Shown: positions 1,213-36,702 of the stretch, piece after piece | Layout: the number at the start of each line of letters is the position of its first letter | Position numbering within the stretch: position 1 is the stretch's first letter | Virus genome (UHGV): UHGV-0324630 | Strand: one strand, 5' to 3' | Length of the DNA stretch: 37,666 bases | Source of the DNA: a virus | Made by a program: the position numbers and the translations under genes | The notes under the pieces: generated by a model | Seen by the model: only the letters and a program-made list of their open reading frames with translations | Told to the model about the DNA's origin: nothing | The model's database searches: none

Positions 1213-1560
1213 TTACTTATCACATAAATCAAATGCAGCCTTAGTGACATCCCCCAGACTCTTTTTTAACCCTGGGGCGGCATCATTATCTAGCCAAAAT
1301 GGATTATTGTTATCTAACGGTAACGCACCAAATGTTTTACCTTTTATTCGAGCCAAACCTGTAAGTGCATATAACTTATTATCGTCAAAATTCATCACAT
1401 AAGGATTACCATCAAGACACTGTAATTGAACCTCATCAGTATTAAATGGCCATACCCCATTGAAACTCTCACGTTCAATAGTTTTAAAAGGCATTGCGAC
1501 GGCGGAAAAAGAAAACATAGATAAAAAAGTAACTAATAGTTGAACCTTTTTTACTTTCAT
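1213..1560 (-). CDS. Small secreted protein with N-terminal signal peptide, function unknown (cargo gene 5 nt upstream of int)
   Basis: 115-aa ORF; N-terminus MKVKKVQLLVTFLSMFSFSAVAMP is signal-peptide-like; two Cys in the mature part; GAGGT RBS 6 nt upstream; stop is 5 nt from the int start codon. Confidence 0.6.
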   Translation of the reverse strand: MKVKKVQLLVTFLSMFSFSAVAMPFKTIERESFNGVWPFNTDEVQLQCLDGNPYVMNFDDNKLYALTGLARIKGKTFGALPLDNNNPFWLDNDAAPGLKKSLGDVTKAAFDLCDK

Positions 1561-1589
1561 ATCATTACCTCAATTTAGCTCAAGTAAGA

Positions 1590-2240
1590 TTACAAATTAA
1601 AAAACGCCCTAGAAATGACACCGCCTACCAAAACCCCTACGCAGATAAAGAATATTATTTCTTTTGGATAAAGTCGGATTAATTCTGAAGCACGAAGTCG
1701 GACTTCTGGTAAGGTCGAACTCTCTGTGTGGCTTGATGCCGATTGTTGCTCTAACCACGACAATGCAGACTGTAACTGAGAACGAGTAAGATCGTTTAAA
1801 CGTCCTGTACCGAAATTGATATGGCAATACCGCAGAAGTTTTTGTCGAAGTCCACAGTCTTCACTGTTACGTAGTAATAAACTTACAAGAGCCTTACAGG
1901 CATCATGATCTTTACATCGCTCAAGCATTGCATGCAGAAAACTCTCCGCTGTTTTATATTGATTTACTGTCATATCATCAATACCAGCTACACCAATCTC
2001 CGCATGTACTTTTTGCCAAATAATAAACGCTTCAGTATTGCTAGCTTCTGCAATAGCAGCAACCAAGCTATTTAGCTCCTTACGCTGAGCCTTAAGCAAA
2101 GGGCGATCGTCATCATCATTATTCGAAGGGATTGCGATATTGACGGTATGAGAACCATCATATCGCTCTATCTGAATATTCTTTTCGTGAAAATCACGCC
2201 CAGCAACGCGATTGTTTGAACCGTTTGAGTTGACGGCCAT
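1590..2240 (-). CDS. Hypothetical protein with C-terminal transmembrane anchor; N-terminus shares an NNR[IV]AGRD[YF] motif with the upstream HTH protein
   Basis: 216-aa ORF; GGAGGTGA RBS; C-terminal hydrophobic stretch IIFFICVGVLVGGVISRAFF; N-terminal NSNGSNNRVAGRDFHE resembles the C-terminal ISGGNNRIAGRDYNE of the ORF at 2256..2660. Confidence 0.6.
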   Translation of the reverse strand: MAVNSNGSNNRVAGRDFHEKNIQIERYDGSHTVNIAIPSNNDDDDRPLLKAQRKELNSLVAAIAEASNTEAFIIWQKVHAEIGVAGIDDMTVNQYKTAESFLHAMLERCKDHDACKALVSLLLRNSEDCGLRQKLLRYCHINFGTGRLNDLTRSQLQSALSWLEQQSASSHTESSTLPEVRLRASELIRLYPKEIIFFICVGVLVGGVISRAFFNL

Positions 2241-5483: not shown

Positions 5484-5605
5484 GAAACCAGAACATGCAC
5501 ACACAAAAAAACCGCTTGCCATGCCGCAATCGGTCAGGTTACATTTCCGCTGCACCTCATAAAACGGGTGCCGGGATTCTCAACCCGATACAGAGCAAAG
5601 CGCAT

Positions 5606-5626
5606 AACCGCGCTAGCGGTTTTTTT
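5606..5626 (+). terminator. Intrinsic terminator-like hairpin (AACCGC-gcta-GCGGTT followed by a T-run)
   Basis: GC-rich 6-bp stem, 4-nt loop, then about 7 T; 123 nt downstream of the stop at 5483. Confidence 0.5.
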
Positions 5627-5805
5627 GTGCGTACTGTATTGCCACGTCTTTTTCGCGTCAGAATTATGGCGGGGCGTACGGGGCCGACTTCGGTCGGGCC
5701 GGATTCTTTGCTCTCCGGTGTTGAGAACCCTGTACGTCTCGCCACCCCGAGATTCTCAACTCTGGATGGTGAGTTATTTCTATCACCGAGCAAAGAGGCC
5801 ACACC

Positions 5806-6036
5806 ATGGCAGACCGCAAACAGCACCGCGCTATCGCGGAGCGTCGTCACATCCAGACTGAAATCAACCGCAGACTTTCCCGCGCATCACGCGTCGCGCA
5901 AATCATGCACATCAATATGCTGCATGAGCGCAGCCACGCACTATCAAACATTTATTCCGCCTCTGTTTTCAGCTATCTGGCGGATGATCTGCACGAGTTT
6001 CAACAGCTCATCCAGCAGCAAAACAAACTCCATTAA
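5806..6036 (+). CDS. Hypothetical small basic protein upstream of the replication genes
   Basis: 76-aa ORF with AAGAGG RBS 7 nt upstream. Confidence 0.55.
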   Translation: MADRKQHRAIAERRHIQTEINRRLSRASRVAQIMHINMLHERSHALSNIYSASVFSYLADDLHEFQQLIQQQNKLH

Positions 6037-6480: not shown

Positions 6481-9303
6481 ATGACGGCAGAGTACATCAG
6501 GGACTGGCAACAACCGCGCCACGCAGTGGGGCGTGAAGGAACGGGGATCCCCGCTCCTGAATCTGCGCTTTCCTCCTGGCTGGATGCCTACCGGGCAGAG
6601 AACGAGCGCCGCCAGGAAATGGCTGATGCGGCGTTCTCCGCCACACCGCTGGGCAACCTGATTAATAAAAGCCTGGACGCACAGGAAAAACAGGACAAAG
6701 CCATCACACTGGCAGGAGACGCCAGAAAACAGGCACGCGGCGCGGTGGATGAAGCCATGGCCTCGCTGCGCCTGCTGCCGTCCTATTTGCGCGATCCACT
6801 TATTCGTCACCTCTCCTTCCTGCGCAAAAAACAGGAAGCCGATCGCCGGAAAGGCAAAAAGAGCTGGCAGGCAGAACGCTATGCACGCGGAACCCTGCGC
6901 AAGATATTCGATCGCATAAACCGCACCGACAGCCGCTGGCTGACACCGGGTTATCGCTCCCTTGCCGGACGCGAACGCCTGGACGATTTGCTTTACCTGC
7001 CGCAGCTCAACAAGCACCAGATACAGACGCTGGCTACCATGACGGCGGCGATGTTCAGCAGCACCTTCGAAAAACTCTGCGATGGTTTTGGCGCGACCGA
7101 TGGCGAGCTGACCATGGATGTAACCCTGAAGGCGTATCAGATGCTGGCCCGCATGGCGTTACACCTGCACGCCATGCCTCCACATTATGACGCACTGACA
7201 ACAGACAAAGACCGGAGGAACGAACCGGACACGGAGCTGCTGCCAGGCGCAATCCTTCGCCTGACCTGTGCGGAATGGTGGAAACGCAAACTGTGGCTGT
7301 TACGTTGTGAGTGGCGGGAAGAACAACTTCGCGCCGCCTGTCTGGTTTCCAGAAAAACATCGCCCTATCTGAGCCAGGACGCGTTAAGCGAGTTTCGCGC
7401 ACAGCGCGAGAAAACACGCGATTTCCTGAAAAGTTTCATGCTGGAAAACGAAGACGGGTTCACGATTGATCTCGAGACAGTGTATTACGCGGGAGTAAGT
7501 AACCCGGTTCACCGTAAGGCAGAAATGATGGCCACCATGAAGGGGCTGGAACTTCTGGCCGAAGCCCGTGGCGACAAAGCGGTGTTTCTGACTGTCACCT
7601 GCCCGTCAAAATACCACGCCACAACAGAGAACGGTCATCCGAATCCCAAATGGAACGGGGCCACCATGCGCGACTCCAGCGATTACCTGGTTAACACGTT
7701 TTTTGCGGCGGTCCGCAAGAAACTGAACCGCGACGGCCTGCGCTGGTATGGCATCCGCACGGTGGAGCCTCACCATGACGGCACCGTGCACTGGCATATG
7801 ATGGTCTTTGCTCATCCGGAAGAAATCGACACCATTGTGTCCCACACCCGTGATATTGCCATTCAGGAAGATCGTCACGAGCTGGGTGATGATATTACCC
7901 CACGCTTTAAGGCGGAGTACGTCGACGGCTCAAAAGGCACACCGACCAGCTACATCGCCACCTACATCGGGAAAAACCTGGACAGCCGTGCCGTGGATGG
8001 CATCGACCCGAAAACGGGCAAGCCACGCGTTGACCACGAAACCGGAAAATCAATGGCCGAGAGCGTGGAACGCGCCATCGGCTGGGCGCGCCTTCACCGG
8101 GTCCGCCAGTTCCAGTTTTTTGGTATCCCCTCCCGTCAGGTGTGGCGTGAGCTGCGTCGCCTTGCCAGCCAGATGGCACGCAACCCGGAAGGCCCACAAC
8201 GGCTGAAGGATGACGCAATGGATGCGGTTCTTGCTGCCGCTGATGCCGGATGTTTTGCCACCTACATAGAGAAACAGGGCGGCGTACTTGTTCCACGCAA
8301 GGACTACCTGGTTCGCACCGCCTACGACCTCGCAGATGAACTGAATGATTACGGCGAACAGAGCGTACAGATTTACGGGATCTGGTCACCACTCATCGGG
8401 GAATCCTCTCGTGTGTGCACGCATCCGGATAACTGGAAGCTGGTAAGACGTAAACCGGAAACGGAAGACAGCGCCCGCGAAAATGGTTTTGACCTTCAGG
8501 GCGGCCCTGCCGCCCCTTGGACTCGTGGCAATAACTGTCCCCGTGTACAGGAAACGGACAACAACGGGACAGAACAGCCGGAAGAACGGCCAGCACCGTG
8601 GCCGCAGCTCCCTGACGGCGTTGAAGTGAACGAATGGATGCGCTCACTGAAACGGCACGAACGCCGGGCGCTGATGCGTTCGCTTCGTGACAAACAGGCA
8701 AAAAACAGCAGTGATGAAATGCAGAGCTGGACACAGAGCCGCAAACAGCAGCGGCCTTTGCCTGATAACCACGAATTACTCGCTAAAGAATGGCGGGAGT
8801 CTGCTGAATCTCTCGGCCTGCATATCGGTGAACAACAGATGCAGCACCTGTTACGGGGCGGCAGTCTGTACGTTGACGGCAGCATCATTGCACCGCAGGG
8901 ATTTGAAATTATACGCAAACCGGATACCCGCCCGGACAGCCGAATCACGCAGCTCTGGCAGCGCCTGAGCCGTAATCACGGCGTAAGCAGCACGGAGATC
9001 CGCCATAACCCGGTCGCCAGCTATCTGGCACAGCTGGGGGCATCAGCCCCTGAAGCCGCCGCACGCCTGGCATCCACACTTCAGCAGGACCAGAACACCA
9101 TGAAAACACCCGTTACCGTGCTTTCTGACATGCTGCGCGCCATCCGCGACGCAGAGCACGCACAGAGAATCAGTGAAACCACTGAACGCGCCCGCCGCAA
9201 AGCAGACCTGCTGCGGGGTGGCCTGACCAGTGGAAACAATAAACAGACAGAAACGGGACTCACGAATCCCGTAAATGAGCAAAAAACGCGCAGCGATATA
9301 TGA
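6481..9303 (+). CDS. A: Rolling-circle replication initiation endonuclease (P2 gpA family), with a long C-terminal extension
   Basis: 940-aa ORF; HUH-type motif GTVHWHMMVFAHP and paired-tyrosine motif TSYIATYIGKN typical of P2 A-type Rep proteins. Longer than P2 gpA (about 760 aa by my memory). Confidence 0.9.
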   Translation: MTAEYIRDWQQPRHAVGREGTGIPAPESALSSWLDAYRAENERRQEMADAAFSATPLGNLINKSLDAQEKQDKAITLAGDARKQARGAVDEAMASLRLLPSYLRDPLIRHLSFLRKKQEADRRKGKKSWQAERYARGTLRKIFDRINRTDSRWLTPGYRSLAGRERLDDLLYLPQLNKHQIQTLATMTAAMFSSTFEKLCDGFGATDGELTMDVTLKAYQMLARMALHLHAMPPHYDALTTDKDRRNEPDTELLPGAILRLTCAEWWKRKLWLLRCEWREEQLRAACLVSRKTSPYLSQDALSEFRAQREKTRDFLKSFMLENEDGFTIDLETVYYAGVSNPVHRKAEMMATMKGLELLAEARGDKAVFLTVTCPSKYHATTENGHPNPKWNGATMRDSSDYLVNTFFAAVRKKLNRDGLRWYGIRTVEPHHDGTVHWHMMVFAHPEEIDTIVSHTRDIAIQEDRHELGDDITPRFKAEYVDGSKGTPTSYIATYIGKNLDSRAVDGIDPKTGKPRVDHETGKSMAESVERAIGWARLHRVRQFQFFGIPSRQVWRELRRLASQMARNPEGPQRLKDDAMDAVLAAADAGCFATYIEKQGGVLVPRKDYLVRTAYDLADELNDYGEQSVQIYGIWSPLIGESSRVCTHPDNWKLVRRKPETEDSARENGFDLQGGPAAPWTRGNNCPRVQETDNNGTEQPEERPAPWPQLPDGVEVNEWMRSLKRHERRALMRSLRDKQAKNSSDEMQSWTQSRKQQRPLPDNHELLAKEWRESAESLGLHIGEQQMQHLLRGGSLYVDGSIIAPQGFEIIRKPDTRPDSRITQLWQRLSRNHGVSSTEIRHNPVASYLAQLGASAPEAAARLASTLQQDQNTMKTPVTVLSDMLRAIRDAEHAQRISETTERARRKADLLRGGLTSGNNKQTETGLTNPVNEQKTRSDI

Positions 9304-9379: not shown

Positions 9380-10339
9380 ATGAAAATTTGTATCGACGAC
9401 GGCTCCACCAACATCAAGCTGGCATGGACTGAGAACGGCGAACGCCGCAACGCCATCAGCCCGAACAGCTTCAAGTCGGAATGGTCTGCGCCGTTCGGTG
9501 GCACGCAGCCCGCGAACTACATGCTTGATGGCGTGCGCTATGGTTTTGATCCTGTCAGCGATCGCTTTGTCCAGACGACCGACACGCAATACCAATACAG
9601 CGATGTGAATGTCATTGCCATTCATCACGCGCTGGTCAAATCAGGCATCACGCCACAGGAGGTGGATGTGGTTGTCACCCTGCCACTGAGCGAGTATTTC
9701 GACACAAACGCACAGCCGGACATGGCCAACATCAACCGCAAAAAAGCGAACGTTATGCGCCCGGTGGAGTACCAGAACGGCAAAGCATTCACTATCCGTA
9801 ACGTACGGGTTATGCCTGAATCTATTCCGGCTGGCTTTAAAGCACTGGCTGACATGAGTCCGTTTGAATCCCTGCTGATTGTGGATTTAGGCGGAACCAC
9901 GCTGGATGTGGCAAAGGTTCAGGGACAACTGGCAGGTATCAGCCAGGTGTTTTGCGATCCACACGTAGGCGTTTCCCTGATGGCCGATGCAGTACTGTCG
10001 GTGATGGCCACTAACGGTATGCGTACCAGTCACCACATCGCCAATACCATTATCGAACATCGCCATGATGAAGCTTGGCTGCGCCAGCACATCCACAATG
10101 ACGCGCATTACGCCAGCCTGATGGCGGTTATTCGTGAAAAGGAAGAAACACTGAAACAACGCGTGATCCGCGCGCTGGCGGGTTTTTCGGGTTACGGGCG
10201 GGTGATGGTTGTCGGTGGCGGAGCGGAGATTGTGGCACCCGCTATCCGCGAAGCCTGCGGGGTTAATGCGACTTTCATCGCGGACGGGGTGCCACAGTTT
10301 GCTCTGGTTAATGGGCTGTACGCAATGGACAAGGAGTAA
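9380..10339 (+). CDS. parM: ParM/StbA-family actin-like ATPase (type II partition NTPase)
   Basis: 319-aa ORF; N-terminus MKICIDDGSTNIKLAW...ISPNSFKSEW...YQYSDVNVIAIHHAL and later PESIPAGF, IVDLGGTTLD, FSGY..VMVVGGGAE align closely with my memory of plasmid R1 ParM (MLVFIDDGSTNIKLQW...ISPNSFKREW...). Confidence 0.9.
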   Translation: MKICIDDGSTNIKLAWTENGERRNAISPNSFKSEWSAPFGGTQPANYMLDGVRYGFDPVSDRFVQTTDTQYQYSDVNVIAIHHALVKSGITPQEVDVVVTLPLSEYFDTNAQPDMANINRKKANVMRPVEYQNGKAFTIRNVRVMPESIPAGFKALADMSPFESLLIVDLGGTTLDVAKVQGQLAGISQVFCDPHVGVSLMADAVLSVMATNGMRTSHHIANTIIEHRHDEAWLRQHIHNDAHYASLMAVIREKEETLKQRVIRALAGFSGYGRVMVVGGGAEIVAPAIREACGVNATFIADGVPQFALVNGLYAMDKE

Positions 10340-10718: not shown

Positions 10719-11102
10719 ATGAGCAAAATCAACTATCAGGCATTACGTGAACGTTATTCACCTGCACCAGTACCAAAATGCCCTATTTGCGGCGAAGAAA
10801 TGTCAATTCAGCGAATATCTGGAGCACAGGTTGTTTATGCCTGCTCCAGTTATGGTGATGATGGAGATTTCAAAGTTGGTCGAACTCTTGTCGACGAACA
10901 TTATGAAAAATCACGCGTAACAGTGTTGGATGTCGGGGCCCCTGAAGTATTGGCGCTACTTGATTGACTGGAAACCAAAGACAACCGAATCACTGAACTG
11001 GAAAAAATCGCCACTGACTATGCACTTAAATTCCAGAAAGCACAGGACGCATTAAAGTACGCCGCTTTGCTGCATAGCAGGACAGCGCAGCTAAAATACT
11101 AA
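10719..11102 (+). pseudogene. Zn-ribbon/coiled-coil small protein interrupted by an in-frame TGA at 10965..10967 (probable TGG to TGA nonsense change); 82-aa product if terminated
   Basis: ORF 10719..10967 (CPICGEEM...YACSS) stops at TGA, but the same frame continues protein-like for 44 more codons (LETKDNRITELEKIATDYALKFQKAQDALKYAALLHSRTAQLKY) to TAA at 11100-11102. Reading TGA as Trp gives a seamless ...LALLDWLETKDN... junction. Confidence 0.4.
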
Positions 11103-11192
11103 CTTAAAGCGGAAGATTAATACATGGTGAGTCGGGGTAATTTGTTTTTATCCCGACAAATAAACAAAAAAGTGGACTATCTCTGTAGTATC

Positions 11193-11723
11193 TTATTCAG
11201 CATCGTCTCGTGCAGTCTGTGCATACGTCACAACAACGCCCAATGCATTAGTTTTCTTTTCAACATAGATAATATTGTCATATTCATAGTTACCATACGG
11301 ATAGCAAATAAGAATATTTTTATGCAGTTCGGGATCATCAACAAACGCTCCGGAACAGCTTCTTGAACTACCAGATGTATACTCATACGGTGCAACATAT
11401 GATGATGTTACTCCTGGTAAAAAATAAGTCACCATCATAAGAGGGATAATCAGGAATATCCCTGTAAGAATGCAAGAGCCAGCATAAACCTTCAGGTATT
11501 CCGACAGTCCTTTCCAGCCACTTTGCTTCACTACCCCCCTCTTCACCAGAAACAAGGAGAAGAAAAAGGACATACCCATACTACACAAGATGTAATAATT
11601 GGATATACGCGAATTAAGATATGTAATCCTGTAGATATCTGCCCTCCACCAGTAAAAGAGGAAAATAATCCCTAGCACTGAAACAGTCATGCAAATCAAA
11701 TAAGGATATGAATCTTTCTTCAT
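11193..11723 (-). CDS. Integral membrane protein (about 4 TM helices plus a C-terminal soluble region), unknown function; AT-rich cargo gene at the position of the P2 tin/old accessory locus
   Basis: 176-aa ORF; hydrophobic segments LICMTVSVLGIIFLFYWW, YILCSMGMSFFFSLFLV, VYAGSCILTGIFLIIPLMMVTYFL; markedly AT-rich relative to the phage backbone. Confidence 0.65.
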   Translation of the reverse strand: MKKDSYPYLICMTVSVLGIIFLFYWWRADIYRITYLNSRISNYYILCSMGMSFFFSLFLVKRGVVKQSGWKGLSEYLKVYAGSCILTGIFLIIPLMMVTYFLPGVTSSYVAPYEYTSGSSRSCSGAFVDDPELHKNILICYPYGNYEYDNIIYVEKKTNALGVVVTYAQTARDDAE

Positions 11724-11795
11724 GTCTTGCGCTCATTAAAATTTCCCTGCTACGAACAAATTTACCATCCGTTTTTTGCGCAGAAAACAGCACGA

Positions 11796-11828
11796 TGCAC
11801 ACTGCACGATAGTGCACAAATTTGCACA
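11796..11828. repeat. Four helically phased TGCAC(A) repeats in the non-coding region between the cargo gene and portal gene (probable cos/packaging region)
   Basis: TGCAC at 11796, 11803, 11813, 11823, with a fifth at 11895; flanked by TTTTYTGCGC motifs at about 11773 and 11913. Confidence 0.3.
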
Positions 11829-12253
11829 ATTTTTTTGAACGACTTTTTACCCTTCCGCCCCGCATGGCGGCTGGATCCGTCAAGGATCCGTGCGTGCACA
11901 AAAAAAAGCGTTTTTTCTGCGCGCAGGTGACGGGGGAACAGCCCGCGTTTCAGGGGGTAAATAGCATTCCCTGAGCGATGTCGCAGCGACACAACAGAAT
12001 GGCTGTATTTCTCACGCTGAGCGTGAAAAAGACGTGAGGGCTTTTGATTTGATGGGGTAACAGATAAGGCCGCCAAAATCGCACTGAGGCGGCAGGAACA
12101 TGCAGTCAACGCGGTGGGATTGCGTAAGAGTCTGACCGTCGATGATGGCAATAAGCTGGAAGGCGTCGTGAAATTATCTGATTGATACAGGAGCTGGAGA
12201 GTCGGGGCATAAATTTTTTATGCCCCGGCGAAGCAGCAGACAAGCGAAGCGCG

Positions 12254-13300
12254 TCAGGCTGTGGGCTGAGTGTCTAACAGTGCGTAAGGGTTAAAGCGGA
12301 TCACCTCTTCGCCCAGCCAGTCATTGATGTGCTTCATGGCCTCCATGACGGGCATCAGCTCATTAATTGCGTAAACCCGCGCGGCCTTCTCCACATCACC
12401 AAACGCACTTTTTTCGCCCGGCATCGCCCCCATCAGTTGCGGTGGAACGCGGTGCGCAGCCAGCACATCATCACGGGATGCCGCCTTAACATTCATGAAC
12501 TCATCCTTTGCGGTGATCTGCTGGAACGGCAAAATTTGCACCCCTTCTTTGCCCCCGTTGGGCGCATGAATGAGCACGTTTTTAAACGCACCACCACCAC
12601 GTGCCCCCTGTAGCGTTTCTTTCAGTGAGTCCATGCTTTCGCGGTTTACCTGCGCTGCACCGATGTAGATGATGCACCCGGCGTGGGAGCCGTTGTCGTA
12701 GTACAGTTTTCTGAACATGTCCGCCGAATGAGACAGGCTGGCCGAGAGTAATGCACCAAGATATTCCGGCATGCCGTAGATTTCCTGGTTAATATCCGGA
12801 TTCATCAGGTGGCACACTTTGCCAGGGCGAAACTGAAACGCGTCCTTACCATCCTGCACATACCACCATGATTCAAGATCGCTTCCGCGTCGCATGTATT
12901 TCGCCAGGGCGTGCCGTAATTTAAGCGGTTCGCCGAGCATATTGCTTCGAAGCTCAAGGAATGCGTTACCGAACACAAACCAGTCCAGCGCCAGCGCCGA
13001 GAAATCCTGCCGGGAAAGCAGCGGGTGCGGGATGTAGCAACCGAGTAATACATTGCGCTTAAAGTAAAGCGCAGATTGATGCCAGGACGTTTGCCGGGCA
13101 GCTCTTGCCAGACCGTACCAGTCCACCGGGGTTTCATACCACCGCCCGTTATCAGCACAGTACATATTGTCCAGCAGGTCATGCCCGGTCAGGCGGTAAG
13201 GACCATCAAATGTGAATGCACTGAGCGATGATTCTTTCCTGAGCGCATCAGCGAGATCAATGCGTGAACTCATGCGCACTTTTTTATTTTTTCTGCTCAT
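12254..13300 (-). CDS. Q: Portal protein (P2 gpQ-like, PBSX-type portal family)
   Basis: 348-aa ORF directly downstream of and overlapping (TGATG) the large terminase gene on the minus strand; size and position match P2 Q. Confidence 0.88.
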   Translation of the reverse strand: MSRKNKKVRMSSRIDLADALRKESSLSAFTFDGPYRLTGHDLLDNMYCADNGRWYETPVDWYGLARAARQTSWHQSALYFKRNVLLGCYIPHPLLSRQDFSALALDWFVFGNAFLELRSNMLGEPLKLRHALAKYMRRGSDLESWWYVQDGKDAFQFRPGKVCHLMNPDINQEIYGMPEYLGALLSASLSHSADMFRKLYYDNGSHAGCIIYIGAAQVNRESMDSLKETLQGARGGGAFKNVLIHAPNGGKEGVQILPFQQITAKDEFMNVKAASRDDVLAAHRVPPQLMGAMPGEKSAFGDVEKAARVYAINELMPVMEAMKHINDWLGEEVIRFNPYALLDTQPTA

Positions 13301-15051
13301 CAGAACTCCATAACCGTGAAACGCTCGTTTTCTCCTTCGCCGCCAATCGGTTCGTTAATGACAGCAAGCATGGTTGCCCACGCAAGGTCGCCGTGGCTAA
13401 TCCCCCTCGCGCGGTCCGTTTCGTAAGTGATAAAGCCGCCCGGTGTTTTCACCTTACGCACGGCGTTAAAGGCCGCGACCAGCTCGCGTTCGGCGCGATC
13501 GTATTCCCACCGCCCGGCACGCATTATTTGCAGCATTTTCAGTACCAGCGACCGTTTTGATGACAGCGTGAAGGTGTACGGAATAGCTGCAGGGAAAAAC
13601 CGTTTCACTATCTGATAAACAGCCTCCCCGTTCCCGCCCGTCACATCAATGCCGATGTGTTCCACGTTGTAGCGATACGTGAACTCTTCAATGACTCTGG
13701 CCTGTTCTTCAAACTCCAGCCCCTGAACGCGTCGCGTCTCCACCGTTCGAAAACGGCCACCAGGAACAGCCGGAGGAACCACCACGGACACTGCACCGCT
13801 GTCGCCGTTTCCACTGCTGCCGTTTGCGTCATACCCAATCCATACCGGACGATTCCCCATCGGGCGGGGAGCAAAAGGTTTCCAGTCTTTCCAGTCGTCG
13901 TATCCGTCAACACCGCAGCCAATCAGGATATTCAGGTTAAATGCCGATTCCCCTTCGCGAACAAACTCACACATATAGAGATTGAGGAACTCGTCTTCGG
14001 TGTTTTCATCACGGATTTCGTCAATATCGGTGTGTTTCCAGCCGTGATTAACCACATCTTCCAGCGTGACAATTTGCCGCCACGTCCGGTCAGGGCAGAT
14101 AAGCCCGTTATGCAGCGTTTTCCAGTCCACAGAAAAACGCTGGCGTTTATGCGAGGCCTTTTTCTCGTTCCAGCGGTCGCCGTTCCAGTAGGCGTATGCC
14201 TCGTGCGTTTCGGTGGATGGCGTGGAGAAGTAGGTGCGCCGCAGTCCGCTGAGGGTTGCCATAGCGCCAGCCACCTTGCGCAGTTCAGCAAAGCGACTGA
14301 CCCAGAAAAATTCATCAAAATAAAAATTGCCCGTATAGGACTGTGCCGACGCAGCAGAAGTGCCGAGAAAATGCAGCTCTGCGCCGTTGGAGAGGATGAT
14401 TTTATCGCCCCCTTTCAGCTCCACATCAACTTCAGCCGCGGCCTTCTGAATAATGCTTTTAAACTGGAACGCCTGACGACGCGACGCAGACAAAAAAATC
14501 TGGTTACGCTGGTAAGGTTGCGCCACATCGTCACGCAGCGCCATCAGCAGTGCTTCCTGTGCAAAATACCAGGTCGCCCCAATCTGTCGGGATTTCAGGA
14601 TCATCCTGTTACGTATCCCGGCTTCCCTGCAAAGAGTCAGGGAGTCAAACCAGCCCCGCTGATGCCACTCCAGCCTGCTGATGATTTTTTCCCGCAGTGC
14701 GGCAATCTGTTCCGGCGTGAAATGATTTTTAAGTTTTTTCGCCCGGCCTTTCTTTCCTGTGGCCGTCGCATCCGGCTGGCCATCATGCATTTTTTTAAGC
14801 TGCCGGGTCAGCAGGTCTATTTCCTTGAAGTCACCACCTGTTTTATTCTGTTTTTCAGTAAGCTGGATGAGGCGCGCATCGATGGACTGCGTGACACGCT
14901 GCACGGGTGGCGTTTCATCCCACTGGTCGCGTTTTTTCCACGCATAAATCGTGTTCGGGTTTATTCCCATCAGACGTGAGATTTCTGCGGGCGGATAACC
15001 CTGCCAGTAAAGTTGCCGCGCACGCTGGCGCACAAAAGCGTCCTGAATCAT
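13300..15051 (-). CDS. P: Terminase large (ATPase) subunit, P2 gpP-like
   Basis: 583-aa ORF; N-terminal HTH-like segment (RARQLYWQGYPPAEISRLMGINPNTIYAWKKR) followed by an ATPase/nuclease-sized body; divergent from the scaffold/capsid operon as in P2. Confidence 0.9.
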   Translation of the reverse strand: MIQDAFVRQRARQLYWQGYPPAEISRLMGINPNTIYAWKKRDQWDETPPVQRVTQSIDARLIQLTEKQNKTGGDFKEIDLLTRQLKKMHDGQPDATATGKKGRAKKLKNHFTPEQIAALREKIISRLEWHQRGWFDSLTLCREAGIRNRMILKSRQIGATWYFAQEALLMALRDDVAQPYQRNQIFLSASRRQAFQFKSIIQKAAAEVDVELKGGDKIILSNGAELHFLGTSAASAQSYTGNFYFDEFFWVSRFAELRKVAGAMATLSGLRRTYFSTPSTETHEAYAYWNGDRWNEKKASHKRQRFSVDWKTLHNGLICPDRTWRQIVTLEDVVNHGWKHTDIDEIRDENTEDEFLNLYMCEFVREGESAFNLNILIGCGVDGYDDWKDWKPFAPRPMGNRPVWIGYDANGSSGNGDSGAVSVVVPPAVPGGRFRTVETRRVQGLEFEEQARVIEEFTYRYNVEHIGIDVTGGNGEAVYQIVKRFFPAAIPYTFTLSSKRSLVLKMLQIMRAGRWEYDRAERELVAAFNAVRKVKTPGGFITYETDRARGISHGDLAWATMLAVINEPIGGEGENERFTVMEF

Positions 15052-26124: not shown

Positions 26125-26741
26125 TGGCATTCAGAATGAGTGAACAATCACGTACTGTAAAAATTTATAACCTGCTGGCCGGAACTAATGAGTTTATTGG
26201 TGAAGGTGACGCATATATTCCACCTCATACAGGGCTGCCAGCCAATTCTACAGATATCGCCCCACCGGAAATTCCTGCTGGCTTTGTGGCAGTTTTTAAC
26301 AGTGAAAATGAATCGTGGAATATTGTTGAAGACCATCGTGGTAAAACGGTCTATGACGTGGCATCGGGGGACGCGTTGTTTATTTCTGAACCCGGACCGC
26401 TACCAGAGAATGTCACCTGGTTGTCGCCAGCAGGGGAGTATCAGAAGTGGGACGGCGTATCCTGGGTGAAGGATGAGGAAGCAGAAAAACTGTTTCGGAT
26501 ACGGGAAGCGGAAGAGAAAAAGGCAAGGTTGATCCAGGAAGCAACAGATAACATCGCAATTCTGCAGGATGCAGTTAATCTTGAAATAGCAACAAACGAG
26601 GAAAATTCACAACTGGATTCCTGGAGAAAATACAGAGTATTAGTGAGTAGAATTGACACCAGTACAGCTCCGGATATCGTATGGCCAGAGCTGATGAATC
26701 AGGGTTATGTGCGGGAGGACGAGCAGATAACTTCAGACTGA
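26124..26741 (+). CDS. G: Tail fibre assembly chaperone (Tfa/gpG-like)
   Basis: 205-aa ORF, ATG overlaps the H stop (TAATG); sits directly after the fibre gene. Confidence 0.8.
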
Positions 26742-27268
26742 AATTTAGTGATGAATGTTGAATCATCTGGAATATCATGCAATACCAATGCATGAGCACC
26801 TATTGTGACATTGTTTCCTATACGCACTTTGCCACCAAGAATGGTGGCATTACAACCAATGGTCACATTATGTCCTATAACAATATCCATATCATTAAAA
26901 TCACCACGCAGCCCAATAGTTACCCCTGGTTTTATTGAACAATTTTCACCGATTGTTACTTTGTGACCGATAACAACACTGTTGAGATAAGAAATATCAA
27001 AGCCTTTCCCTATATTTACAGTTAAAGGGACTGTTACATTATATTTATCAAGAATGAAACGTTCTATTTTCCCCGCAATCTTCCGACAGTATCCGCCTTT
27101 ATCAAAAAGGTATTTGGCTATGCGCCACCAAAATAAATAACGAACTCTTCTATGTTTTATTGCGCGAACAATTGCCTTTCGCCAGGAGAAAGGACGCTCG
27201 CTACCGATTACTTCATAGTGAATACAATCTTTAAGTTCATTAATATTCATATCTCTATTATTCAGCAT
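26705..27268 (-). CDS. Hexapeptide-repeat (left-handed beta-helix) acyl/acetyltransferase; AT-rich cargo gene at the position of the P2 Z/fun locus
   Basis: 187-aa ORF; tandem hexapeptide repeats [21 protein letters not shown]...[34 protein letters not shown] typical of LacA/Maa/WbbJ-type transferases; convergent with and overlapping the tfa 3' end. Confidence 0.8.
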
Positions 27269-34680: not shown

Positions 34681-35820
34681 GTGGGAAACAATAAAGTGAA
34701 ATTAGGAAGAAATGATAAGTGCTGGTGTAATTCAGGACTTAAGTATAAAAAGTGCCATCTTGGTCGAGACCGTGAAACTCCGGTATCCAAAGCCGAGGCA
34801 CTGAAATTTTCAAAGTCTCTCTCGCAGAGAAAGGCATGTTATGCGCCAGCATCCATGCACGAAGATTGTGATAAACGCATCGTTCAGGCGCATACGATAT
34901 CTAAGAGCAGTAGCCTTAAGGCGATCGCCGACTCCAGCAATCACGTCATGGGGGTGATAATGAACTTAGCAAGCCTGATGAGAAACAACGGAAAATGGCT
35001 TCCCGAGAAGATCGGTATCAATCAGGCATCCACTTTTACAGGATTTTGTGCAGTTCATGACAGAATCTTGTTTTCATGCCTAGAGAACGAAAAATTTACA
35101 GGCACGGACGAGCAGTGCTTTGCCTTAATGTTTCGTTCATTGTCTAAAGAAATTTACGCCAAAGAAGGGGGAGTGCTATCTTCCGATTTTGCTAAAAATG
35201 CCGATAAAGGAAAGCTACAAGTTGAACAGTATTATATTCAGAAATTAATCGACCAGCACCAAAGTGGCTTAAATGCAGCAATAATTGAATTAAATAATCT
35301 TAAAACTAGCCTCGACCGCATCCTACTTAGCAGGCAATTTTCAGAAATTGAAAGTGTTATCTTCACTTTTGCAGAGCCTTTACCAATTGTAGTTTCGTCA
35401 ATTCTTTCACCGGAGAGGGATTTCGATGGGACCAAAATTCAGGATTTGAGCGATCTTACAGTGTCGGCGGAACAAGTATGTTTCAATGCTTTTTCCTGCG
35501 GAGGTAAGGGATATGTAGTGTTCAGTTGGCTGAGAACTTCAACAATTATCAGACGTTTTATACGGACACTAATTAAGATCCCGGCTAACAGGATGTTCAA
35601 TACCCTTCTGTATTTTTTCTTCACAAAGGCCGAAAATACATATTCATCCCCTGAGTGGTGGGACAGGCTCAGTGATAAACAGCGAGAGAATATCGGCAAC
35701 ATGATTATGTCAGGGGTTGAATTTTTTGGCAGACCTACATCACAGGTTGATCATTCCGTTGATTATAACGCCGCTGCACTTGAAGAGATAACATGCAGCA
35801 ACAACGAAATTTGCAGCTGA
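34681..35820 (+). CDS. Uncharacterised protein with N-terminal SEC-C-like zinc-binding motif (C-W-C-x8-C-H); AT-rich cargo gene inserted between gpD and ogr
   Basis: 379-aa ORF (GTG start, start uncertain; alternative GTG at 34696); N-terminal KCWCNSGLKYKKCH; rest unrecognised; strongly AT-rich with about 400 bp and about 290 bp non-coding flanks. Confidence 0.65.
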   Translation: MGNNKVKLGRNDKCWCNSGLKYKKCHLGRDRETPVSKAEALKFSKSLSQRKACYAPASMHEDCDKRIVQAHTISKSSSLKAIADSSNHVMGVIMNLASLMRNNGKWLPEKIGINQASTFTGFCAVHDRILFSCLENEKFTGTDEQCFALMFRSLSKEIYAKEGGVLSSDFAKNADKGKLQVEQYYIQKLIDQHQSGLNAAIIELNNLKTSLDRILLSRQFSEIESVIFTFAEPLPIVVSSILSPERDFDGTKIQDLSDLTVSAEQVCFNAFSCGGKGYVVFSWLRTSTIIRRFIRTLIKIPANRMFNTLLYFFFTKAENTYSSPEWWDRLSDKQRENIGNMIMSGVEFFGRPTSQVDHSVDYNAAALEEITCSNNEICS

Positions 35821-36561: not shown

Positions 36562-36702
36562 ATGTCGCAAAAATCGCTTACGGCCATCACGTTCTGCGTG
36601 ACGGTAATCCTCATCATCTGGATGCTACACGGTTCGCTGTGTGAAATACGGATGAGCTTCTGGGGAGCGGAGTTTGCGGCGTTCTTACAGTGTAAGCAGT
36701 AA
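36562..36702 (+). CDS. Hok/Gef-family type I toxin (small membrane toxin)
   Basis: 46-aa ORF with AAAGGAG RBS: MSQKSLTAITFCVTVILIIWMLHGSLCEIRMSFWGAEFAAFLQCKQ; N-terminal TM helix then the SLCEIR motif characteristic of Hok/SrnB/PndA; not in the ORF track (below 60 aa). Confidence 0.8.
   Translation: MSQKSLTAITFCVTVILIIWMLHGSLCEIRMSFWGAEFAAFLQCKQ

Follow-up and report, generated by a model that had tools for sequence, protein, structure and literature searches.

By sequence comparison, we show that a constrained, horizontally mobile single gene for a three-transmembrane (TM) membrane protein is located in the accessory-gene hotspot of a P2-family prophage genome (UHGV virus genome UHGV-0324630). 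The whole stretch of 37,666 nt was analysed and is referred to as the window. The locus is best explained as an accessory module of one gene (a moron) occupying the cos-adjacent gpA-gpQ hotspot of a P88-like prophage. For the function of the gene product, superinfection exclusion at the envelope is our best guess, which we put forward tentatively. This type of locus is known and the gene has been listed before as 'hypothetical'; its product represents a protein family of uncharacterised fold and function. The coordinates of all features are given in Table 1.

Table 1. Features of the cargo locus and its surroundings in the window (strand left empty where none applies).
Feature	Position	Strand	Basis or remark
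Replication endonuclease gpA	6481..9303	+	PGAP annotation
ParM	9380..10339	+	PGAP annotation
ead/Ea22-like remnant	10719..11090	+	In-frame stop at codon 83; cut by insertion at aa 124/196
Inserted module, 712 bp, G+C 0.383	11090..11801		BLAST breakpoints vs E. coli 2013C-3252 prophage
Hairpin, 10-bp stem, 7-nt loop	11131..11157		36 nt downstream of stop codon; folding z ~-2
CDS, 176-aa predicted inner-membrane protein	11193..11723	-	ORF, conserved start, dN/dS, PHROG 1416 match
Conserved C-terminal five-stranded beta domain, aa 103-171, predicted periplasmic	11211..11417	-	Alignment, AlphaFold2
Invariant Cys140	11304..11306	-	33-sequence alignment
Invariant Cys123	11355..11357	-	33-sequence alignment
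Three TM helices and two short loops	11421..11708	-	Hydropathy, AlphaFold2, loop K+R counts
Extended -10-like motif TGgTAAATT, predicted	11759..11767	-	44 nt upstream of ATG
Imperfect palindrome GTTTTTTGCGCAGAAAAC (T-run, N8, A-run)	11771..11788		Directly upstream of -10 motif
Phased GTGCA repeats, cos-proximal backbone	11801..11837		Conserved: cargo-less relatives; P2-like loci of Salmonella and Enterobacter
5-bp-stem hairpin with T-run	11812..11836	+	z -1.4; conserved phage backbone, outside insert
cos-like core GGTGACGGGGGAACAGCCC	11926..11944		~205 bp upstream of cargo ATG; P2 cos = GGCGAGGCGGGGAAAGCAC
Portal	12254..13300	-	ORF list, PGAP annotation
Terminase	13300..15051	-	ORF list, PGAP annotation

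As annotated by PGAP in the chromosome of E. coli strain 631, which is 100% identical, the P2-family prophage is integrated beside yecA. Its genes are arranged in the order integrase, early genes, gpA, ParM, a ParR-like gene, the ead/Ea22-like pseudogene, the cargo ORF, portal, terminase, and capsid and tail genes. The closest phages are P88-like Xuanwuviruses (Peduoviridae), and these relatives match the flanks only. The first-pass annotation, made from the sequence alone, had placed the gene between the replication/partition genes and cos/portal, and this position was confirmed with gpA, ParM and the ParR-like gene on the left and the cos-like core, portal and terminase on the right. It had also described an orientation opposite to the neighbours, which holds for the plus-strand genes on the left; portal and terminase are located on the minus strand, as is the cargo gene.

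In comparison with the cargo-less prophage of E. coli 2013C-3252, the inserted module replaces 258 bp including the 3′ end of the Ea22-like gene, which is intact in that prophage (196 aa). A comparison of the occupancy of this locus across related prophages had been proposed together with the earlier annotation, which named a lack of variability among the points that would speak against it. The interval turned out to be variable, with six different contents among relatives whose portals are 82-100% identical, and this cargo is present in 62 of ~1,177 genomes matching the backbone flanks (among 5,426 complete E. coli genomes).

The same interval carries the old and tin genes in phage P2. In the P2 record, both are minus-strand genes flanked by A and cosR, with transcription of the old-tin mRNA beginning ~150 nt inside cosR. 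The cargo gene of the window likewise lies between gene A and cos/portal, is directed leftward and opposite to A with a start shortly inside the right cos end, and is swapped among relatives. In addition, gpA-gpQ has been described as a P2 defence hotspot (Rousset et al. 2022, PMC9122126). The earlier proposal of a P2 tin/old-equivalent exchange locus is thus supported by the shared geometry, the published hotspot and the variable contents. The cargo itself differs, being one small membrane protein without sequence or domain relation to Old (AAA/OLD nuclease) or Tin. Table S5A of the same study lists WP_000711111, WP_000711112 and WP_000711113 as 'hypothetical' at such loci; none of the three is among the tested systems in its Table S2 (Rousset et al. 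2022, PMC9122126).

The longest open frame at the locus is the 176-aa ORF on the minus strand that had been proposed before, and it starts with ATG. It was also correctly described as AT-rich and compositionally distinct, as its G+C content of 0.386 compared with 0.516 for the whole window falls into the lowest 3% of 531-bp windows. On the DNA level, the CDS is 99.3% identical to the locus encoding WP_000711113.1. The protein start MKKDSYPYL is kept in divergent homologues, all of which are without N-terminal extension, with the consensus MKK(D/Y)SYPYL in Salmonella, Enterobacter and further homologues. Pairwise comparisons with five homologues gave dN/dS values of 0.08-0.15 at dS >1. Judged by these substitution rates, the 176-aa frame is a real gene under constraint.

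Database annotations of this gene are contradictory, and taken at face value they would point to a decaying pseudogene or a mis-called frame. At identical or near-identical loci in strains 631 and 135, PGAP labels the gene as 'frameshifted', while the 531-nt gene is called intact in O103:H2 CEC12044 (WP_000711113.1) and in strain E148 (WP_000711110.1). This disagreement arises because the 200- and 223-aa reference forms carry an upstream extension, which overruns the conserved promoter motif and has no counterpart in divergent members. In many assemblies, the locus is represented only by a 112-aa product that starts at the internal GTG of codon 65 (11529..11531), a start with AAGAGGGGGG before the GTG that is favoured by gene callers; still, the full 176-aa frame is intact in three of four checked loci with this call. 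The adjoining Ea22-like gene, on the other hand, is a true remnant. Against decay stand the open frame with its family-wide conserved start, the intact PGAP calls and, above all, the dN/dS of ~0.1 relative to homologues at dS >1, because of which we regard the frame as a constrained gene and a pseudogene as highly improbable and already largely refuted. The comparison thereby exposes an annotation problem, with one gene being called intact, 'frameshifted', 112, 200 or 223 aa long across records.

The first-pass annotation had predicted four TM segments. The Kyte-Doolittle plot shows three hydrophobic segments (~aa 8-26, 42-60 and 80-102) followed by a hydrophilic C-terminal part of 74 aa. For structure prediction, a 33-sequence family alignment was used as AlphaFold2 input. 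The resulting model (mean pLDDT 92.2, pTM 0.79) consists of three long helices (aa 6-29, 38-61 and 71-101) and a five-stranded beta domain (aa 105-171), while loop 1 (aa 30-37) forms a short beta strand (aa 34-36). Loop 2 (aa 61-79) is rich in K and R, with a mean K+R count across the family of 4.3 compared with 1.8 in loop 1. The only invariant columns of the 33-sequence alignment are C123, C140 and G162. The highest information content is found in the C-terminal domain (2.47 bits per column), and the most variable part is the predicted cytoplasmic loop. From the positive-inside rule and the invariant cysteine pair, we infer an N-in/C-out topology, in which the beta domain and loop 1 would face the periplasm and C123 and C140 would form a disulfide in the periplasmic domain. 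A lipoprotein-type exclusion protein such as Cor or Llp was also considered and rejected: Cys11 is preceded by Y-L-I, which gives no lipobox [LVI][ASTVI][GAS]C, and it is not conserved.

The protein family is small. Within 5.8 billion proteins it accounts for 61 clusters at the 90% identity level, and within 1.84 billion for 57 representatives at the 50% level. Nearly all members are ~170 aa long and have a common architecture. The C-terminal half of the protein gave a strong match to the profile of PHROG 1416 (E=2.6e-45; aa 90-175 to profile positions 2-87 of 90), a family without functional annotation. This 90-position profile spans only TM3 and the beta domain; its source sequences were apparently products of 81 and 112 aa, called from internal start codons. 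Searches of Pfam, NCBIfam and PADLOC with the protein and the 33 family members yielded nothing above chance. The PADLOC check recommended with the earlier annotation (PADLOC-DB v2.0.0) gave no match for the protein itself and only chance-level ones for the 33 family members, namely to RexB (E=0.09) and to a 4TM effector (E=0.43), each in one member. A PDB sequence search with the family profile found no match, and no known housekeeping family was matched in the Pfam, NCBIfam and PDB sequence searches. Over all comparisons, no fold or sequence match to any known family was obtained, including the PADLOC models, P22 SieA and NfeD. Rfam has nothing in or near the locus. Literature text searches retrieved no paper on the family, and for the records of phages 434 and mEp332, which carry a homologue, only a genome announcement and a qPCR paper. 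In the homologue searches, a 3074-aa protein (P0103) seemed to contain 11-12 copies of the beta-domain core; this was rejected as a summation artefact because the repeats score ~3 bits each, are without cysteines and vanish with a broader profile.

Short proteins of the NfeD type such as E. coli YbbJ combine N-terminal TM helices with a C-terminal beta barrel. In gross architecture the cargo protein is similar, as both are ~150-176 aa long and have a small all-beta domain after several TM helices; we regard this as a lead only. At the sequence level, a relation to NfeD/YbbJ was rejected (hhalign probability 0.9%; no PF01957 match in the 33 members at E<=1), and an NfeD C-terminal OB-fold domain was found neither by sequence nor by fold. 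Further differences are the lack of a stomatin/QmcA-type partner adjoining the cargo gene and the location of the C-terminal domain, which is cytoplasmic in NfeD, while the Cys pair and the charge pattern of the cargo protein point to the periplasm.

Upstream of the gene, 10 of 14 loci, some of them outside phages, share the extended -10-like motif as TG(G/A)TAA(A/T/G)TT at 44-48 nt from the ATG. Shuffled sequences gave a mean of 0.42; as the loci are related, this comparison describes conservation and not a probability. With a two-hexamer scan, no sigma-70 promoter was found at the locus. From the position of the motif, transcription is predicted to start near 11751-11753. A T4...A4 inverted repeat similar to the palindrome directly upstream is present at the equivalent place in other family loci; the palindrome of the window folds weakly as RNA and is possibly an operator or UP-like element. 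The TGnTAAnTT motif accompanies the gene inside and outside phages, and the various contexts have no partner gene in common. We therefore infer that the gene is an autonomous unit with a putative promoter of its own.

The cos-like core is also present in the Salmonella and Enterobacter P2-like loci, and the GTGCA repeats have a P2 equivalent in three ATGCA repeats just upstream of the old-tin mRNA start. A hairpin on each side of the gene had been noted before. Both exist and are modest in stability. The left hairpin is part of a stretch shared with the prophage-remnant copy of strain E148 (window 11129..11837) and has no U-run after the stem on either strand, hence it is not a canonical intrinsic terminator. 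The right hairpin with its T-run belongs to the conserved phage backbone and not to the insert, and is predicted from its location and strand to terminate the rightward early operon.

Homologues with 55-65% identity also lie between gpA and portal in P2-like prophages from Salmonella, Enterobacter and metagenomes. These prophages are divergent, with portals 44-76% and gpA 30-63% identical to those of the window. Within the P2-like loci, the homologue is always on the portal (and terminase) strand, 0.45-0.95 kb past the portal stop, and some degraded prophages have kept the cargo gene after loss of the portal.

The lambdoid phages 434, mEp332 and 2B8 carry a 79%-identical copy in their xis-exo interval, in opposite orientation to the pL operon; in 434 it is CPT_434B_36. 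This allele also occurs in the prophage remnant of strain E148 near torI/dsdC and was detected in 83 of the 5,426 complete E. coli genomes. The DNA upstream of the lambdoid copy matches the cos region of the window in several collinear segments. These are CATTCTGTTG, followed 33 nt on in both sequences by the exact 15-mer AATGCTATTTACCCC, a GTGCA-repeat segment with 81% identity over 37 nt and a 32-mer with 97% identity. The lambdoid copy lacks ~84 nt of the cos region, among them the cos core. Of these matches, the 15-mer is confined to the P88-like lineage. The vestiges suggest that a P88-like phage was the source of the lambdoid module, and the sequence comparison as a whole shows the module to be mobile between phage lineages. 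Two other observations at this site were discarded: an ORF for a 56-aa 'membrane protein' upstream of the 434 copy, which is absent from the window, overlies the vestigial cos-flank DNA and is probably spurious, and the Ea22-like gene as a route of recombination with lambdoid phages, as there is no Ea22-like sequence beside the lambdoid copies.

The constant strand and distance relative to the portal could also indicate a non-essential role in the phage life cycle, for example in entry of the phage's own DNA, in lysis timing or in remodelling of the lysogen envelope, with expression by read-through from the late P-Q operon across cos. Only weak hairpins separate portal and cargo gene. Against such a role, the gene has its own conserved promoter-like motif, is missing from most close relatives as counted above, and also occurs as a unit in lambdoid phages with other morphogenesis and lysis genes and at non-phage loci. 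A life-cycle role is therefore considered improbable.

The more distant homologues, with 33-55% identity, occur singly at loci outside phages. In Pantoea, 25 records of ~540-kb megaplasmids carry a homologue near fetAB and a gene for a TonB-dependent receptor. The Serratia homologue is located between ptsG and mntR, that of an enterobacterium after the scr operon, and that of Pseudomonas is oriented divergently to a fecIR-like ECF sigma operon and has a gene for a PMT_2 glycosyltransferase in its vicinity; further non-phage homologues were found in Cedecea and Citrobacter. A scan of genome contigs gave only two loci, one of them in a probably contaminated MAG. No partner gene is common to the different contexts.

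Because these distant homologues are chromosomal or megaplasmid singletons, a reading of the family as defence only is weakened; the singletons would fit a general envelope function borrowed by phages. The main rival explanation is accordingly an envelope protein for lysogenic conversion or host fitness that was taken from bacterial chromosomes and is unrelated to defence, acting for example in metal or envelope stress or in immunity to a membrane-acting bacteriocin. The stable non-phage loci in all the genera named above, the retention of the gene in decayed prophages and the lack of a defence-database match are in line with it. However, members with more than 55% identity are overwhelmingly located in the P2-like hotspot or the lambdoid xis-exo region, no known housekeeping family matches, and the non-phage neighbourhoods, with their apparent 'metal' theme, share no consistent partner. 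We consider this explanation possible, but doubtful.

Superinfection exclusion remains our best guess in view of the gene's autonomy and the predicted architecture of its product. Under this model, the gene would be transcribed leftward from its own extended -10 promoter and hence be expressed in the lysogen. The protein would act alone at the periplasmic face of the inner membrane and block genome delivery of incoming phages; its targets might be incoming ejection or tape-measure proteins, or an inner-membrane component used by the incoming phages. It would not be a suicide effector.

A small multi-TM protein in a defence hotspot also suggests an abortive-infection (Abi) membrane effector, comparable to RexB and to the TM effectors found in CBASS, Thoeris and retron systems. 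On infection, such an effector would make the inner membrane permeable or depolarise it, and the cell would die before phages are released. In line with this alternative, TM proteins of known hotspot systems are usually read as suicide effectors (PMC9122126). The RexB match of one family member mentioned above is very weak and at chance level. The protein has three TM helices compared with four in RexB-type effectors, and no neighbouring partner gene is conserved across contexts. We favour exclusion over Abi because no sensor partner travels with the gene, which moves as a single gene, because the protein has no cytoplasmic sensor or enzymatic domain, because conservation is concentrated in the parts predicted to face the periplasm, above all the beta domain rather than the helices, with a variable cytoplasmic loop, and because P22 SieA provides a precedent, although unrelated in sequence. 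An Abi effector is accordingly judged unlikely.

P22 SieA is a prophage-encoded, stand-alone protein of ~165-175 aa with three predicted inner-membrane TM helices (Leavitt et al. 2024, PMC10883804), and the cargo protein resembles it in these respects. Like sieA, the cargo gene is predicted to form its own transcription unit opposite to neighbours. In contrast, SieA has a soluble stretch of ~50 aa between TM1 and TM2 and is without a C-terminal beta domain, and the types of host phage differ. Homology to SieA (types A-C) was not detectable, as the 33-sequence profile aligned against P22 SieA gave an hhalign probability of 0.2%.

As a mobile element, the cargo gene is similar to the lambdoid morons (Hendrix/Juhala definition; HK97 gp22/gp23). 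Presence or absence between close relatives and atypical composition, which mark a moron, were both found here, the latter as low G+C, and here, too, one gene lies between backbone genes, with a hairpin at its side and a putative promoter. It differs in that promoter and terminator of the cargo are predictions, the hairpin being without U-tract, and in that the lambdoid cargo copy has vestigial P88-like cos flanks, pointing to import from the P2 family.

In its widest form, the proposal is a new single-gene envelope superinfection-exclusion family without detectable fold relative, consisting of a three-TM anchor and a disulfide-bonded periplasmic beta domain, which would be present in P2-like myoviruses and in lambdoid siphoviruses including 434. 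Lambdoid phages would have received it from the P2-family cos hotspot, along with vestiges of the cos flanks. This full combination is possible, but we would not yet count on it. Mechanistically understood injection blockers are few and include P22 SieA, HK97 gp15 and T4 Imm/Sp. Should the cargo protein exclude phages, a new family of stand-alone membrane proteins would join them, and it would be easy to study, since the 79% homologue is present in the classical laboratory phage 434 and in mEp332. The locus would then also be a concrete case of defence cargo moving from the P2-family cos hotspot to the lambdoid xis-exo region. Without a phage phenotype, the gene would be one more uncharacterised moron. 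It is common in any case, as each of two alleles occurs in ~1-1.5% of complete E. coli genomes and thousands of assemblies carry the gene overall, which may make it relevant for the prediction of phage-host range.

The cargo gene (window 11193–11768) is annotated inconsistently in the RefSeq records NZ_CP040263, NZ_CP080260, NZ_AP038983 and NZ_AP024518. The gene is listed as a 'frameshifted' pseudogene in two genomes, whereas two others carry it as an intact protein of 176 aa. Further records hold longer calls of 200 or 223 aa, whose upstream extension covers the promoter motif, as well as shorter calls of 81 or 112 aa. The 112-aa product, which is found in 2,321 blocks of the index, is reported by gene callers because a Shine-Dalgarno-like sequence (AAGAGGGGGG) followed by a GTG codon is present within the gene. 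Starting from this internal GTG, translation could yield a single-pass isoform consisting of the third transmembrane helix and the beta domain. In one metagenome contig, a frameshift is located within the G6 run of the gene.

Coordinates of features in the prophage and at the hotspot of two related phages or prophages (window positions unless another locus is named)
Feature	Locus	Position	Strand	Remark
isrK	window	5552-5626	+	Rfam match at gathering level, 63 bits; early/immunity region
C4 antisense RNA	window	5662-5749	+	Rfam match at gathering level, 78.5 bits; early/immunity region
ead/Ea22-like gene remnant	window	10719-11090	+	stop at codon 83; truncated at aa 124 of 196
Internal AAGAGGGGGG and GTG at codon 65 of cargo gene	window	11529-11545	-	sequence
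Hotspot cargo, E. coli FDAARGOS_1252	L029	1904-4411	-	uncharacterised three-gene block, 263 + 114 + 458 aa
Hotspot cargo, vB_EcoM-705R2	L005	1925-2767	-	uncharacterised 280-aa gene
DUF2511 protein and 216-aa hypothetical protein	window	1213-2240	-	low GC; between integrase and repressor-like HTH gene
'Transferase'	window	26705-27250	-	low GC; after tail-fibre assembly gene
YecA-family protein, 379 aa	window	34681-35820	+	low GC; between gpD and ogr
Hok/Gef toxin gene	window	36562-36702	+	low GC; near prophage end

Between the cargo gene and cos, at 11801–11837, about 90–125 bp inside the cos-like core, GTGCA motifs occur with a phasing of about 10 bp, and they are kept in every P2-like locus compared. 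The corresponding stretch of P2 (L033, about 5945–5985) contains three ATGCA repeats, directly upstream of the start of the old-tin transcript. These repeats could represent either a packaging site for terminase or a host factor, or a promoter element common to the cargo genes. At the lambdoid copies of the module, both P88-like cos flanks survive as collinear vestiges (phage 434, L001 4807–4968; mEp332, L002; the E148 prophage remnant, L007), while about 84 nt including the cos core are missing from all three. In 434, the vestige is overlain by CPT_434B_35, an ORF annotated as a 56-aa 'putative membrane protein', which may be spurious.

The same hotspot carries different content in E. coli FDAARGOS_1252, where the cargo block replaces ParMR, and in vB_EcoM-705R2. 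Intact versions of the ead/Ea22-like gene next to the cargo gene, a remnant in the window, are found among relatives without cargo. Elsewhere in the prophage, further accessory candidates of low GC content were noted (table); the position of the 'transferase' is that of Z/fun in P2.

In the early region, the isrK and C4 RNA matches are located upstream of a gene named 'derepression protein' by PGAP, which suggests that immunity of this P88-like prophage is under antisense-RNA control in the style of P1, P7 and P4.

Non-phage homologues of the cargo protein often have metal-homeostasis or envelope genes nearby, as noted from individual examples: a fecIR-like ECF sigma/anti-sigma pair and a PMT_2 glycosyltransferase in Pseudomonas (L018, L020), fetAB and a TonB-dependent receptor in Pantoea (L044), and ptsG, mntR and an Nramp transporter in Serratia (L045).
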